NCBI GenBank assembly: GCA_902780935.1
Contig: CACZHP010000001.1
Location: 129,264-193,263, forward strand
DNA from: an uncultured Bacteroidia bacterium
GTDB taxonomy: Bacteria; Bacteroidota; Bacteroidia; Bacteroidales; UBA932
Reading direction: 5' to 3'
Length of the DNA: 64,000 nucleotides
The notes below the pieces were generated by a model. The model did not search any database. It was not told the origin of the DNA and saw nothing but the letters and a program-made list of their open reading frames with translations. How positions within the stretch are numbered: position 1 is the first letter of the stretch; each line of letters starts with the position of its first letter. Positions 23,449-29,245 of this stretch are shown one piece after another. Position numbers and translations under genes: made by a program.

Positions 23449-23498
23449 CAAATATAGCCAATAATTCTTGCCCCTCTTGCTAAATAACGTTATTTTTG
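23449..23498. promoter_or_regulatory. Divergent ahcY / fabG promoters
   Basis: Minus-strand TATATTTG (23449-23456) toward ahcY; plus-strand TATTTTTG (23491-23498) with TTG 20 nt upstream toward fabG. Confidence 0.6.
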
Positions 23499-23532: not shown

Positions 23533-24279
23533 ATGGGTTTATTAGATGGAAAAGTCGCCCTTGTGACGGGCGCCGCGAGAGGAATCGGAAAAGCGATCGC
23601 GTTGAAATTCGCGTCCGAGGGTGCTGATGTGGCTTTCACTGACCTCGTGATCAACGAGGCGGCCGAGCAAACGATAAAGGAACTTGAGGCTTTCGGCCAT
23701 AAGGTCAAAGGTTACGCTTCCAATGCAGCCAATTTCGAGGAGACTCACGCGGTTGTGGATCAGATCCTCGCCGATTTCGGAAAAATCGATATTCTTGTCA
23801 ACAACGCCGGTATCACGAAAGACGGCCTGATGATGAGGATGACGGAGCAGCAGTGGGACGCTGTCATCGGAGTCAACCTGAAGTCCGCTTTCAACTTTAT
23901 CCACGCCATCACTCCTATAATGGCGCGCCAGAGGGGAGGAAGCATTATCAACATGTCTTCCGTAGTGGGTGTCTCAGGTAATGCGGGACAGTGCAACTAC
24001 TCCGCTTCCAAGGCTGGTATGATCGGACTTGCCAAGTCCATCGCCAAGGAAATGGGTCCCCGTGGCATCAGGGCCAACTGCATCGCTCCCGGATTCATCA
24101 TCTCCGATATGACAAACGCTCTTTCCCAGGAGGTTCGTGACGCTTGGACCAAGCAGATTCCTCTCCGTAGGGGCGGTACTCCCGAGGATGTCGCGAATGT
24201 GGCCCTCTTCCTCGCCAGCGACCTTTCCAGCTATGTCAGCGGCCAGGTCATCCACTGCTGCGGAGCTATGAACTGCTAA
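23533..24279 (+). CDS. fabG: 3-oxoacyl-ACP reductase (SDR)
   Basis: TGAARGIG, NNAGITKDGLMMRM, SSVVGVSGNAGQCNYSASKAG, PLRRGGTPEDVA; ATG at 23533. Confidence 0.9.
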   Translation: MGLLDGKVALVTGAARGIGKAIALKFASEGADVAFTDLVINEAAEQTIKELEAFGHKVKGYASNAANFEETHAVVDQILADFGKIDILVNNAGITKDGLMMRMTEQQWDAVIGVNLKSAFNFIHAITPIMARQRGGSIINMSSVVGVSGNAGQCNYSASKAGMIGLAKSIAKEMGPRGIRANCIAPGFIISDMTNALSQEVRDAWTKQIPLRRGGTPEDVANVALFLASDLSSYVSGQVIHCCGAMNC

Positions 24280-24708
24280 ATGGCGGGAATTCCCTCAATT
24301 AAGACTATTTTGAAAGAAAAGCCCGGCAGCCTTGTCGGGCAACTTTTCAGATATGCCGTTGTCGGGGGAATATCCTTTGTGGTCGATTACGGCAGCCTGT
24401 GGCTTCTCACCGAGAAGGCGGGGCTGCCTTATCTTTGGTCAGCCGCAATAGCGTTTATCCTCGGCTTGATCTGCAATTACCTGCTCAGCACCGCATGGGT
24501 CTTCGGAGAGAGCAAACTCAAGAACGCGTGGGCTGAATTCGCCGCTTTCGCGATAATCGGGGTGATTGGCCTCGGGCTGAACGAGCTTATAATGTTTGCC
24601 TGCACAGACGGGCTTGGTTTCCACTACATGTTATCCAAGATTGTCTCGACAGGTATCGTGTTTTTTTGGAATTTTCTCGCCAGGAGGTTCCTGGTTTTCA
24701 AATCTTGA
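24280..24708 (+). CDS. GtrA family membrane protein (putative lipid-linked sugar flippase/adaptor)
   Basis: 142 aa, four TM segments; QLFRYAVVGGISFVVDY, SKIVSTGIVFFWNF; ATG directly after the fabG TAA. Confidence 0.9.
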   Translation: MAGIPSIKTILKEKPGSLVGQLFRYAVVGGISFVVDYGSLWLLTEKAGLPYLWSAAIAFILGLICNYLLSTAWVFGESKLKNAWAEFAAFAIIGVIGLGLNELIMFACTDGLGFHYMLSKIVSTGIVFFWNFLARRFLVFKS

Positions 24709-24714
24709 TGTGGC

Positions 24715-26280
24715 ATGGGAAAGACAGCCGTGATAATCGGGGCCGGCCCCGCAGGATTGACCGCCGCCCTTGAGCTTCTGAGGCAGACAGACATCAAGCC
24801 CTTGGTGCTTGAGGAGAGCCCTTTCGTAGGCGGTATATCCAGGACGGTAAATAACGATGGCAACAGGATGGACATAGGAGGCCACCGTTTTTTCTCCAAG
24901 AACCAGGAAGTGATGGCTTGGTGGGAGTCCATGATGCCCATCCAGGGCTCTCCGTCCCTTGACGACATATTGCTTGAGAGGGACAAGGAGCTTGTCCAGG
25001 GAGGACCGGATCCCGAGAAAGAGGACAGGGTGATGCTCCTCAGGGATAGGGTTTCCCGTATTTTCTTCCTGCGTCATTTCTTTGATTACCCGATCTCCAT
25101 AAAATGGTCCACATTTGCCGGCATGGGATTGTGGAACACGATACGTGTGGGCTGGGGATATCTGGTCTCAACCCTCCACAAACTTCCTGAGACCTCTCTT
25201 GAGAACTTCTATGTCAATCGTTTCGGAAGGCCTTTGTACGAGATGTTCTTCGAGGATTACACCGAGAAGGTCTGGGGAGTCCATCCCAGCAAGATAGGGG
25301 CTGACTGGGGGGCCCAGAGAGTTAAGGGCCTGAGCGTCATGTCTATCTTGAAGGATGTCCTGACGAAACCTTTCAGGAAAAAAAGCATAGACCAGCAAAA
25401 GGTGGAAACTTCTCTTATTGAGAGATTTATATATCCTAAATATGGTCCTGGACAGCTTTGGGAGACCGTGGCGTCCGAGGTGAAGAAAGCAGGTGGGGAG
25501 ATCCGTTTGCTGTCCAAGGTTACAGGTATTGTCGCAGAGGAAGGAAAGGTCACTGCCGTTGAGGTGGAGACAGGAGGCGTCAAGGAGACGATCCCTTGCG
25601 ACTATATCTTCTCCAGCATGCCGGTCAAGGATCTTGTGGCTGCGGTCAAGGGAGTGGAGACTCCCTCAACGGTAGCCGATGTCGCTTCCGGGCTGCCTTA
25701 CAGGGATTTTATCACGGTCGGTGTCCTGGTGAAAAAGCTGAAGATCACCAATGGGACAAAGATAAAGACTTACGATGGAAGGGTGCCGGACACTTGGATA
25801 TATGTCCAGGAAAGGGATGTCAAAGTGGGCCGCCTCCAGATCTTCAACAACTGGTCGCCCTACATGGTCTCTGATTATAAAGGAACCATGTACGTCGGGA
25901 TGGAATACTTCTGTGACGAGGGGGACAAGCTTTGGGAAATGCCTGACAAAGAGTTTGTTGATATGGCTCTCGGGGAGCTTGAGAAAATCGGGGTCGCCGA
26001 CAGGGGTGATGTGCTTAAAGCGGACCGGATCAAAGTCAAGAAGGCTTATCCCGCCTATTTCGGCACATATAAGGAGATATCCAAAGTCAGGGAGTGGCTT
26101 GACGGTTTCCAGAACCTGTTCTGCATAGGCAGGAATGGCCAGCACAGGTACAATAATATGGACCACTCAATGCTGACCGCCATGGAAGCCGTCCGCTGCA
26201 TCAAGGAGAATATATCATCTAAAGATAATGTCTGGGAAGTCAACACCGAAAAAGAATACCACGAAACCGCCAAGGCCTGA
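24715..26280 (+). CDS. FAD/NAD(P)-dependent oxidoreductase of the UDP-galactopyranose mutase / protoporphyrinogen oxidase-like superfamily
   Basis: IIGAGPAGL Rossmann motif, [49 protein letters not shown]. Confidence 0.85.
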
Positions 26281-27766
26281 GAGCTATTTCCACTTCCTTT
26301 TCCGGAAGGAGCAGGCGTTGGACTGGATGGTCATATTCTTGACCGTACTGGCCGGGTGCTTGCTTGTGACAATCACATTCCCATACCCAAGAATGTCTTC
26401 AGACACTTACGGGTACATTTGGGCGGCCATGAACAATCGGTTCACCCATCTGCGGCCATTCGGTTACTCGTTTTTTTTGAGGATTCTCCATGTTTTTTCC
26501 AAGAGTCTCTATTCGATAATTGTGTCGCAGGCTCTCATTTATGCTGTCTCGGCGGGTATTCTCCTTCTGGCCGTGAAGAAATACTGGCCTCCAAGAAAGA
26601 ACTGGTGGTTTATTGTTTTTGAAGTCGTGACGGTCTTCAGCCCCACGGCCTTTTTCCTGTTTGACACCATTCTCTCCGATGTCCTGCAGTGTGCTTTATT
26701 GTTCGTTATCGTCGCCATGCTCTTGGTCATGATACACGAGGAATCCTGGGTTGCCTTGCTTCTGTACGCCGCCGCGTTGTTCTGCTCTTTCCACACAAGA
26801 TATTCCAGCATGTATCTTCCGGTCGCGATACTCCCCATCCTCGTCTTGTCGGGCAAAAAGGCCATGCGTTTGGTCTCTGTTGGGTTGACGGTCGCCGTAT
26901 TCGCCGTTTTCTATGTCCAGACAGAGCATGATATGGTTAAATATTACGGGCTCAAGCAGTTCTCAACGGGATTTGACGGATGGCAGCTCGCGAATAACGG
27001 GCTCCATGTCATACCTTTCATAGACATCGAGCCGGATAAGATCAAGATCCCCGAGGATAATGACTTGAAACGGCTCCATGAATTCGTGCTCAATTATAAT
27101 TATAAGCACCATAAAATTGAGGAGTACACCAATGAAGGGAAAAAACCCACCGCTTCATTTATATGGATTAACGATGCCCCGTTGAAACAATATCATATCC
27201 GGTATCTGAAGGAAAATGAGGGTAAGTATGATATGGCGATGTCATGGGTCATACTTGGGTCCGGGGTATATAAAGAATACGGGAAGTGGCTGATTGTCAA
27301 TTATCCATGGCTCTTTATAAAGCATTATCTTTTCCCTAATATCAAACAGGTCTTCTTCACGACATTGCTGGAGATGCACACTCTGGGGAGTGACATTCCT
27401 GCGGGAAAGAATGAAATTGTTGAGTGGTTTGATGTTCCTGCTGACAAGTCTTTCGGATCGAGGGGAAAATTGTACCCTACCATATTCAATCCCCTTTACC
27501 CCTGGATTGAACTGATGACATGGCTGGTGTTCATCGCTTCTGCCGTAGTCTTATTGATTGTCAAGAGAAAAGGAGACCTTTCCAAAGAGACCAAACTGTC
27601 CCTTTGGATGATTTTCCTGTTAGGGTTCGTGTATTATGGGACAGTCACGTTCGCCAGTCCGATAGCGCTTCGCTACTGGATGCCGATGCATGCGGTGAAA
27701 CTGGTGTTCGCCTGGATCGCCGTTACCGAAACTCTTCGTATCCGGGCATCCCGAGCCCGGCAATGA
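26228..27766 (+). CDS. Polytopic membrane protein, possible GT-C-type glycosyltransferase
   Basis: About 10 TM segments; acidic motif SSDTYGY in the loop after TM1; [13 protein letters not shown]; large soluble loop; start codon uncertain (overlaps the upstream gene). Confidence 0.6.
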
Positions 27767-28817
27767 ACTCCTTGAACTGCTTGTCGTCCCTCGGGCATAT
27801 CAGGAGGGCGTCGTCGGTGTCGATTACCATGAAGTTCCTCAGGCCTTTTATGGCGTAGATCTTCTTCTTGTCCTCGGTCACGACCAGGTTGTCCTCGTCT
27901 CCCTTGAAGAGGTTTTTCTTTGTGTTCGTGGCGTTTCCCTCCCGATCCCTGTTCGGTGCGGTCCTGAACAGCGACTCCCAGCTGTCGATGTCGAACCAAC
28001 CGAAACTGCCCGAATACAACCAGGCCAGGTCCGTCTTCTCCATGACACCATAGTCGATGGATATCTTCGGGCAGGCGGAGTAGGCTTTCTCCAGGAAAGC
28101 TTTCTCGCCGGGTCCGCCAAGGATGTTCTCCCAACCATTGAATACTGAAATGACGTCCGGCAGGTATTTCGTCATCTCGGTGAGGATTGTCGAGGCTTTC
28201 CAGGCGAAGATACCTGAGTTCCAGAAAAACTCGCCGCTATTGTAGAAAACCTGGGCGAGATCCTTGTCTGGTTTCTCGGTGAAAGTCTTGACTTTCACCG
28301 GTTTCCCTGATTGGGCTCCGGCTTTGCCTCCCGTGACTTGGATGTAGCCATATCCGGTCTCCGGACCAGTGGGAGATATTCCCAGGGTCATCAAGGCGTT
28401 GTTGCTGGCGGCGTATTCGATCACGTCGTCCACTGCCTTCCGGAAAGCAGTCTCGTCGGTGATGATATGGTCTGCCGGCGTGGTCAGGATGATGGCGTCC
28501 GGATCCCGTTTCAGGATGGTGAATGTCGAATATGCGATACAGGGTGCGGTGTTGCGGCTGTGTGGTTCGAGAAGAAGGTTCTCAGCCGGGAGTTCCGGGA
28601 TCTGCTCCTTTACCAAATCTCCGAACCTGTCCAATGTCACGACGATGATGTTCTCCTTCGGGATGATCCTTGAGAATCTCTCGAAAGTCATTCTCAGGAA
28701 GGATTTCCCGTCTCCGGCGATGTCCAGGAACTGTTTGGGCCTGGATTCCCTGCTTATCGGCCAGAAATGGTTCGCCGTACCTCCGGCCATGATCACACAA
28801 TATCTTTTATCTGTCAT
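27723..28817 (-). CDS. Mannose-1-phosphate guanylyltransferase-like nucleotidyltransferase
   Basis: VIMAGG, RPKQF, EPHSRNTAPCI, PADHII, TGYGYI, FTEKP, WNSGIF, SIDYGVME; start moved to ATG 28817. Confidence 0.88.
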   Translation of the reverse strand: MTDKRYCVIMAGGTANHFWPISRESRPKQFLDIAGDGKSFLRMTFERFSRIIPKENIIVVTLDRFGDLVKEQIPELPAENLLLEPHSRNTAPCIAYSTFTILKRDPDAIILTTPADHIITDETAFRKAVDDVIEYAASNNALMTLGISPTGPETGYGYIQVTGGKAGAQSGKPVKVKTFTEKPDKDLAQVFYNSGEFFWNSGIFAWKASTILTEMTKYLPDVISVFNGWENILGGPGEKAFLEKAYSACPKISIDYGVMEKTDLAWLYSGSFGWFDIDSWESLFRTAPNRDREGNATNTKKNLFKGDEDNLVVTEDKKKIYAIKGLRNFMVIDTDDALLICPRDDKQFKEFIAGLGMPGYEEFR

Positions 28818-28843
28818 ATTATGGGTCAAATCACAAAGCCTCC

Positions 28844-29245
28844 TCAAACATACATCGGGATGAAAGCCTCCGGAAACCATTCCAGCTTCTCCTCCCCACC
28901 ATCAAAAGTGACCGCCACGATGTCGAAGCTCACGTCCATCCCCCAGAACACCCCTGGATCCTTGGATTGGTGGAGATATCTCAGCGCTGCATTGGCTATC
29001 TTCTTCTGTTTGAGCGCAGTAACGTTTTCCTCCGGAGCTACGGCAACAGGTGCCACACGGCTCTTTACCTCTACAAAATGTACGCCGTTCCCTTTGGTTG
29101 AGATGATGTCAATCTCAAGATGCCCGGTCCTGTAATTCCTGGCGACGATCCGGTGTCCCATTCCTTGGAGAAAGCGGCATGCCGCATCCTCTCCTCTTTT
29201 CCCCAACAGCATCCTGGCTGTCGGTTTGCTTTCTTTGTTTTTCAT
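28844..29245 (-). CDS. YraN family (UPF0102) putative nuclease
   Basis: LGKRGEDAA, RNYRTGHLEIDII, VHFVEVKSR, FDIVAV. Confidence 0.9.
   Translation of the reverse strand: MKNKESKPTARMLLGKRGEDAACRFLQGMGHRIVARNYRTGHLEIDIISTKGNGVHFVEVKSRVAPVAVAPEENVTALKQKKIANAALRYLHQSKDPGVFWGMDVSFDIVAVTFDGGEEKLEWFPEAFIPMYV

Follow-up and report, generated by a model that had tools for sequence, protein, structure and literature searches.

What does a flavoprotein gene do between a gene for a GtrA-family protein and a gene for a large membrane protein? The question is raised by four genes on the forward strand of a 64,000-nt stretch of DNA (the window, to which coordinates refer unless another sequence is named) from the genome, 97% complete, of an uncultured Bacteroidia bacterium. 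Their open reading frames (ORFs) lie at 23533-24279 (fabG), 24280-24708 (gtrA), 24715-26280 (the flavoprotein gene) and 26228-27766 (the membrane-protein gene). Judged by the gene content and gene order of relatives, the real unit is the trio of gtrA, the flavoprotein gene and the membrane-protein gene (24280-27766), here called the cassette. The function proposed for it, to which we assign a probability of roughly 0.6, is that a mutase of the UDP-galactopyranose mutase (UGM) type would feed a lipid-linked furanose, which would be flipped across the membrane by GtrA and attached outside the cytoplasm by a glycosyltransferase of the GT-C fold.

The flavoprotein as a predicted mutase

The flavoprotein (521 aa; 24715-26280, + strand) belongs to the Amino_oxidase/NAD_binding_8 group and matches NF005546 (PRK07208.1-2) with 810 bits against a cutoff of 418, a family that is named only 'hypothetical protein'; in the Protein Atlas the flavoprotein has generic names only, and the C-terminal part of one long fusion of the family returned nothing. 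As a single sequence, the flavoprotein matches the solved UGM of T. cruzi (4dsg) with an E value of 4.9e-13, and the long-form UGMs are its best solved relatives. A family profile made from 48 representatives that are 36-65% identical to the window flavoprotein matches the UGMs of A. fumigatus and T. cruzi (3ute/3uka/4dsg) with E values of 7e-37 to about 1e-36 in an alignment of stretches 6-81, 112-383 and 408-498, which is most of the length of the enzyme. The same profile reaches 1e-18 with bacterial UGMs and only about 1e-12 with amine, protoporphyrinogen or carotene oxidoreductases. A preliminary description of the locus, made from the letters and the ORFs of the window, had called the enzyme UGM/PPO-like (PPO, protoporphyrinogen oxidase); the first half of that label is borne out by the solved relatives and the second half is not, and the profile scores, together with the UGM residues that are kept, speak against an enzyme of a haem or carotenoid pathway.

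The active site was compared by laying the profile alignments on Table 2 of van Straaten et al. 2012 (PMC3322874), which gives the conserved UGM active-site residues at 20 positions of the A. fumigatus enzyme, AfUGM (H63, F66, R91, F158, M159, Y162, N163, W167, R182, P206, N207, W315, Y317, R327, E373, Y419, R447, Y453, N457 and Q458). Fourteen of these are identical in the window flavoprotein: H63 (H57 in the window protein), F66 (F60), R91 (R112), F158 (F178), Y162 (Y182), W167 (W187), R182 (R202), W315 (W361), Y317 (Y363), R327 (R373), Y419 (Y445), R447 (R473), Y453 (Y479) and N457 (N481). Among the 48 representatives, conservation is 85-100% for thirteen of the fourteen and 75% (36/48) for F66. 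At three further positions the flavoprotein has the prokaryotic-UGM states of the same table (M159 to F, N163 to T, Q458 to M), and Tyr-317, one of the identical residues, contacts the alpha-phosphate (PMC3322874). The nearly invariant E397 aligns with the T. cruzi UGM glutamate that is taken as the equivalent of AfUGM E373. Thus, as far as alignments can tell, little of the mutase active site has been lost in the family, and what is kept includes the residues to which we ascribe the binding of uridine and diphosphate in solved UGMs (F158, Y162, N163/T, W167, R182, Y317, R327, Y419 and Y453).

Because the UDP-binding and active-site residues are conserved, the most economical reading of the flavoprotein is a nucleotide-sugar pyranose/furanose mutase, not an oxidase. 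It is predicted to be redox-neutral, and PRK07208 is, on the profile evidence, a sister family to the fungal and trypanosomal UDP-galactopyranose mutases. The preliminary description had left it to choose whether the flavoenzyme isomerises or oxidises a sugar; the UGM residues favour isomerisation to a furanose, and, being those of a redox-neutral mutase, they count against oxidation. Since galE is present and the genome contains no other UGM, UDP-galactopyranose (UDP-Galp) is the simplest and most likely substrate.

The cassette and its neighbours

The genomic setting of the family was surveyed in 79 loci from species-representative genomes, whose flavoprotein homologues are 58-97% identical to that of the window and represent the closest 80 of at least 598 matches. 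The genomes are metagenome-assembled genomes (MAGs) labelled Bacteroidales, many Clostridia, one Treponemataceae and one 'Riflebacteria'; neighbouring genes were called by a longest-ORF rule and transmembrane (TM) helices by a hydropathy window. GtrA adjoins the flavoprotein gene in about 50 of the 79 loci. The gene at position +1 is co-oriented and encodes a protein of at least 350 aa with at least six TM helices in 43 of 78 loci, compared with 2-9 loci at every other position. Flanks of at least 3 kb on either side are available for 52 loci, a count that excludes three near-identical kin; GtrA is present in 30 of them, the membrane protein in 40, both in 24 and neither in 6, where the incompleteness of MAGs limits any claim of absence. 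No dominant Pfam family emerged as a recurrent soluble partner from the 93 neighbour families, of which 81 were scanned, the NAD-dependent epimerases being found in four. The gene trio is widespread, and the association of gtrA, flavoprotein and GT-C-like membrane protein that the preliminary description had proposed to look for in neighbourhoods is a conserved module.

Natural fusions, through which the wider family was sampled, connect the same partners. A full HMMER scan of 1.84 billion representatives (50%-identity clusters) returned 8,939 relatives of the flavoprotein, 1,381 of them at E<1e-30, and fusions were sought among the top 150 representatives. The flavoprotein is fused to GtrA in P0247 (679 aa), which occurs on several independent contigs; to 7-11 TM helices in P0244, P0263 and P0388; to a GT2 and a PMT_2-type GT-C in a triple fusion (P0361, 1409 aa), a cluster mate of which (RNC81890.1) lies on a 3.26-Mb Phycisphaera contig; and to a GT4 in P0267. 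Through such fusions GtrA and polytopic membrane partners, a PMT_2-type GT-C among them, are linked directly to the flavoprotein, and P0361 shows that at least some systems place a GT2 between mutase and GT-C.

Two other arrangements in the family were noticed. In seven loci from Acutalibacteraceae/Eubacteriales MAGs (L043, L045, L051, L056, L058, L063 and L086) the flavoprotein gene follows two co-oriented genes of U32-family 'peptidases' and GtrA is missing; beyond the peptidase genes, upstream, lies a divergent pair made up of an FAD/BFD-[2Fe-2S] and a Pyr_redox_2 gene; four of these loci are among the six that have neither GtrA nor the membrane partner, and they represent a second, different context. 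About 16 of the 150 best representatives (P0243, P0246, P0272, P0303, P0307, P0309, P0312, P0314, P0318, P0321 and others), one of which, P0312, comes from a Lachnospiraceae MAG, are soluble and 800-2168 aa long; in these proteins an N-terminal UGM-like domain is followed by a long C-terminal extension that has neither Pfam matches nor TM helices. In most of the extensions a shared, conserved module (about 75-100 aa) adjoins the flavoprotein part, the middle varies, and another module, of about 130 aa, forms the C-terminal end.

In the window, the start codon of gtrA directly follows the stop codon of fabG (TAAATG, 24277-24282), a spacer of 6 nt separates gtrA from the flavoprotein gene, and the flavoprotein gene overlaps the membrane-protein gene by 53 nt; the start of the latter is backed by an N-terminal block, FxFxKxQxxDW, that is conserved across 51 homologues. 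All junctions given in the preliminary description (zero, 6-nt and overlapping, between four co-oriented genes) proved exact when re-read, and its single promoter is likewise matched by a candidate Bacteroidetes-type -7 box, TAnnTTTG, at 23491-23498 (+), about 35 nt upstream of the start of fabG, which was found by a motif scan as a consensus match only. No other such box is placed to drive the four genes, the remaining matches (24430 and 26414) being intragenic and lacking a -33 element. Scans for sigma-70 promoters and terminators were uninformative in this Bacteroidetes genome, the number of terminators being at the level of chance. Downstream, the membrane-protein gene and a convergent manC-like gene for mannose-1-phosphate guanylyltransferase (27723-28880, - strand; partial matches to NTP_transferase and TIGR01479) overlap at their 3' ends by 44 nt on opposite strands (27723-27766), and therefore the unit has no intergenic space for a terminator of its own.

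Inclusion of fabG (23533-24279, +) in one four-gene system, as the preliminary description had it, does not hold. Its product, a short-chain dehydrogenase/reductase (SDR), is the only sequence of the genome above the TIGR01830 cutoff for 3-oxoacyl-ACP reductase (326.8 bits against 297.75; the runner-up has 200), which agrees with the remark in that description that the SDR looks like ordinary FabG. Of the 31 genomes of the genus, 26 carry a single ortholog with 73-92% identity, as do all 13 of high quality; the order nhaA(-)-ahcY(-)-fabG(+) is kept in relatives that lack the cassette, where unrelated genes follow fabG; and fabG lies beside the flavoprotein gene in only 3 of the 79 loci, those of the three closest kin (L016-L018). 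It is a housekeeping gene and a physically joined bystander, and the SDR was rejected as a functional partner of the cassette. The manC-like gene was rejected as a member of the unit as well, being core (31/31 genomes of the genus) and located elsewhere relative to fabG in relatives; it marks the downstream boundary of the cassette. Since the cassette has no promoter of its own and lies between these two core genes, it is probably read through from the promoter predicted before fabG, so that the operon reading is corrected for this locus to a bystander that probably serves as promoter donor.

The flavoprotein gene was found in 3 of 25 searched genomes of the genus. In one of these (G006), gtrA and flavoprotein are 67% and 68% identical to those of the window, the trio sits behind genes for a kinase like AmgK and a nucleotidyltransferase like MurU and does not share a contig with fabG, and the membrane partner is a protein of 565 aa that exceeds the PMT_2 cutoff and has no BLAST similarity to that of the window. 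The location of the G006 trio behind other genes, together with the core status of fabG and manC elsewhere, is the reason for taking the trio as the heritable unit, and the cassette apparently lands at the 3' ends of housekeeping operons and uses their promoters. The AmgK/MurU-like pair was considered as a dedicated sugar-activation pair and rejected, because the same pair is found on another contig of the present genome (C2), unlinked to the cassette. In both places (L014 1375-2796 in G006; G000:C2:71705-73123 here) the AmgK-like anomeric sugar kinase has a RapZ C-terminal domain (PF22740) joined to it and a MurU-like uridylyltransferase comes next, an arrangement that suggests a core pair for MurNAc/GlcNAc salvage carrying an unusual domain of regulatory appearance. 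Another genome, G019, has two flavoprotein genes. One (L013) is accompanied by GtrA and a 403-aa GT-C-related partner, and the second (L015, G019:C123, 882-2456, - strand) directly follows tilS on a 5-kb contig, on which neither GtrA nor a membrane partner is visible.

Membrane partners and the proposed pathway

The membrane protein (512 aa; 26228-27766, +) has, in its predicted structure, a clear GT-C fold. An AlphaFold2 model built on 51 homologues (pLDDT 93, pTM 0.92) was compared with 48,161 chains by VIA-align; the best 20 matches are all GT-C or GT-C-like, with Z scores from 20.9 to 10.3 in alignments of 260-348 residues and rmsd of 3.7-5.4, and the next match has a Z score of 6.3. The best include Pmt1/2 (20.9), Pmt4 (19.8), AglB (18.9), ALG12 (18.8), ArnT (18.5), PglB (18.2), AftB (15.9) and AftA (15.2). 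Foldseek gave ArnT, AglB, ALG9, AftB, STT3 and PMT as best matches with a probability of about 1 and E values from 4.5e-3. The fold comparison with ArnT, AftA and PMT that the preliminary description had suggested therefore comes out in favour of a GT-C transferase. D59, D151 and R191 are invariant in the 51 homologues, and Asp59, which lies just after the model helix 27-50 in the first extracytoplasmic loop after TM1, is a candidate catalytic residue. By sequence the family is hard to recognise: it is unnamed and confined to Bacteroidales-like sources, among them Prevotella sp. 10(H) and Dysgonomonas termitidis; the window protein scores 17.7 bits (E 0.0044) against PMT_2, below the cutoff of 26.1, has no match in NCBIfam and found nothing in a sequence search of solved structures, and a few of its homologues carry PF13231 or PF09913.

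Across the loci, the membrane partners fall into 23 clusters that are unrelated by BLAST. Two of these clusters match the window GT-C family by hhalign with probabilities of 95% and 98%, one matches PMT_2, and a comparison of the window GT-C family with three partner families by hhalign gave no significant match. No sequence similarity to the window family could be detected for the commonest cluster (15 loci), which is one of those three; nevertheless the 20 best matches of its model (pLDDT 86) are GT-C chains, with Z scores of 20.4 for AglB, 18.9 for ArnT and 16.2 for AftA. Besides that of the window, the partner families that tested as GT-C or GT-C-related number four. By analogy, conserved supply genes combined with a hypervariable GT-C make up the pattern of a gtrA-gtrB-gtrC cassette, with the flavoprotein in the place of gtrB.

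The third component, GtrA (142 aa; 24280-24708, +), matches PF04138 with 102.4 bits against a cutoff of 26.1, and its cluster representative has four hydrophobic segments. It is encoded by the single GtrA-family gene in the whole genome and is presumed, from what is known of its relatives, to be the flippase or handler of a polyprenyl-phosphate sugar. Scans with Pfam and NCBIfam found no GT2 in the four-gene unit, in agreement with the preliminary description, which had noted the absence of a GT2 prenyl-phosphate-sugar synthase there. The genome does have one GtrB/ArnC-like GT2 (G000:C18:17741-18703, - strand, equal to L128:5739-6704), whose C terminus has two TM helices and whose score with the ArnC model, 179 bits, is under the cutoff of that model. 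This gene adjoins thrS and a gene for aspartokinase-homoserine dehydrogenase.

From these components a pathway of four steps can be proposed, in which the identity of the substrate, the lipid loading, the flipping and the acceptor are inferred. In the cytoplasm, the flavoprotein with reduced FAD would convert a UDP-hexopyranose, probably UDP-Galp, to the furanose by the UGM mechanism through an adduct at flavin N5. The furanose would then be placed on undecaprenyl phosphate (Und-P) by the product of a gene outside the cassette, for which the single GtrB/ArnC-like GT2 is the candidate; GtrA would bring the furanose on its lipid to the outer side of the inner membrane; and the GT-C would transfer it to an acceptor of the envelope, which may be lipopolysaccharide (LPS)/O-antigen, capsule or a glycoprotein.

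Several facts weigh against this pathway. On the side of the enzyme, the flavoprotein is far below the bacterial Glf equivalog (TIGR00031, 25.9 bits against a cutoff of 303.75); PF03275, the GLF family of Pfam, is matched neither by it nor by anything else in the genome; and the galactose contacts P206 and N207 in the flap of AfUGM are replaced by Leu and Ile, which are hydrophobic. On the side of the lipid, the GT2 that would load it is not encoded in the cassette; any GT2 lies within 8 kb in only 5 of the 79 loci and a GtrB-like one in only 3; the GtrB/ArnC-like GT2 is core to the genus (29 of 31 genomes), and the cassette is missing from most of these genomes; and its use of a UDP-furanose is purely our inference. 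Finally, about one in ten of the well-flanked loci have neither GtrA nor the membrane partner, and therefore the family works in other settings too.

The scarcity of GT2 genes invites an alternative that is unlikely, namely that the flavoprotein replaces GtrB, the flavin-sugar adduct being resolved by Und-P held by GtrA, without any glycosyltransferase, in the net reaction UDP-Galp + Und-P -> Und-P-Galf + UDP. GtrA would present Und-P in the manner of the GtrA-like membrane domain in DPMS-type synthases, and the fusions of flavoprotein and GtrA share the layout of synthases in which a GT2 is joined to a GtrA domain. The flavoprotein occupies the gtrB slot of classical gtrA-gtrB-gtrC units, its UDP-binding residues are conserved, and GT2 is absent from 74 of the 79 neighbourhoods although the cassette moves between sites and lineages. 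The equilibrium of UGM favours the pyranose, and resolution by Und-P would pull it toward the furanose. However, such a reaction is without precedent, the sequence of the flavoprotein has no obvious membrane-binding segment, and a GtrB/ArnC-like GT2 does exist in the genome; the triple fusion P0361 and the few loci with GtrB-like GT2s show, moreover, that GT2 is used in some systems. If true, this would be a glycosyltransferase-independent route to Und-P-galactofuranose that serves hypervariable GT-C enzymes across many phyla.

About as unlikely is action of the mutase on the lipid-linked sugar: a GT2 of the host would make Und-P-hexopyranose, which the flavoprotein would convert to Und-P-hexofuranose before flipping, resembling the remodelling of decaprenyl-P-ribose by DprE1/DprE2. 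A cassette that lacks a GT2 and draws on a common host pool would thereby be accounted for, the core GT2 is at hand, and fusion to membrane partners puts the enzyme at the membrane. The conserved residues for uridine and diphosphate argue instead for a nucleotide sugar, as does the existence of P0267, in which the fused GT4 is of the Leloir type that uses nucleotide sugars, and neither a hydrophobic groove nor an anchor is evident from the sequence.

The GT4 fusion, together with those flavoprotein loci that have neither GtrA nor a membrane partner, is what recommends an indirect linkage, in which the flavoprotein would supply UDP-galactofuranose (UDP-Galf) to cytoplasmic Leloir transferases while GtrA and the GT-C add a different sugar, a pyranose, to the same glycan. 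This is improbable in view of fusions that join the flavoprotein directly to GtrA or to polytopic, GT-C-like domains, of the preference of the membrane partner for position +1, and of a cassette that has no GT2 or other sugar-activating gene to supply another donor.

Oxidation of a lipid- or nucleotide-linked sugar by the flavoprotein and its re-reduction by the FabG-like SDR, as a two-step epimerase of the DprE1/DprE2 kind, would suit the abutting fabG and gtrA with their one promoter region, an arrangement kept in the three closest kin, and the epimerase/SDR genes near a few other loci (4 of the 81 scanned neighbour families), yet it is contradicted by the comparative data and largely refuted, given an SDR that is the only FabG equivalog, core, syntenic without the cassette and absent from 76 of the 79 loci, the G006 cassette behind other housekeeping genes, and a flavoprotein whose fold and residues are those of UGM and not of the VAO-type DprE1.

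Comparison with known systems

Every part of the cassette belongs to a known superfamily (UGM, GtrA or GT-C). A literature search, which was limited with respect to subscription journals, found no paper on a UGM-type flavoprotein combined with GtrA and GT-C, or on a lipid-linked hexofuranose donor. To our knowledge, all known incorporation of hexofuranose is by cytoplasmic Leloir transferases fed by UDP-Galf; in mycobacterial arabinan, the residue that is added outside the cytoplasm is a pentofuranose derived from phosphoribosyl pyrophosphate (PRPP). If the cassette works as a module in the way proposed, it would imply a lipid-linked hexofuranose donor new to the literature, a large and so far hidden source of serotype-like variation in the surface glycans of gut and rumen bacteria, and possibly a new flavoenzyme chemistry, and it would give a function to the large family that NCBIfam names only 'hypothetical protein'.

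The nearest relatives of the flavoprotein are the long-form UGMs of A. fumigatus (3ute/3uka/3ukh) and T. cruzi (4dsg), with which it shares a length of about 510-520 aa, the GGH histidine loop and a near-full set of active-site residues. It differs from them in being bacterial and only about 20-25% identical (an estimate from alignments), in having an invariant His at the position of W451, and in an insertion at about 82-111 and a C-terminal tail that are specific to its family. It is also encoded with GtrA and a GT-C, and not with Leloir Galf-transferases or a Golgi UDP-Galf transporter. With the short-form Glf of bacteria it has in common the superfamily, the predicted chemistry and the T, M and F states at three positions of the active site; these enzymes are about 130 aa shorter.

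The preliminary description had drawn a parallel with the mycobacterial row Rv3789(GtrA-like)-DprE1-DprE2-AftA. A GtrA-like protein, a flavoprotein, an SDR and a GT-C do stand in one row in both, and the structural matches of the window GT-C include AftA and AftB. DprE1, however, is an oxidase of the VAO type (FAD_binding_4) whose substrate is a lipid-linked pentose and whose partner is the reductase DprE2, whereas the window flavoprotein is of the UGM type, with the residues of a redox-neutral mutase. The SDR being the housekeeping FabG, the parallel loses its reductase, and it does not extend to the chemistry.

A further comparison is with three-component systems that glycosylate outside the cytoplasm, namely GtrA/GtrB/GtrC of Shigella and Salmonella phages, CsbB/GtcA/YfhO and the systems of Citrobacter youngae; the points in common include a small GtrA protein together with a GT-C transferase. 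The pentofuranose systems of C. youngae consist of a polyprenyl-phosphoribose synthase (PPPRS), a MATE flippase and a GT136, and add Ribf or Xylf outside the cytoplasm from a donor that is derived from PRPP via the PPPRS (PMC11127046). For the cassette, a hexofuranose made by ring contraction is proposed and not a PRPP-derived pentofuranose. Like the Gtr-type systems, the cassette has conserved supply genes, a transferase of variable sequence and the distribution of an accessory element within the genus. Unlike them, the unit contains neither a GtrB-type GT2 nor a polyprenyl-phosphoribose synthase, and a UGM-like flavoprotein stands in that place.

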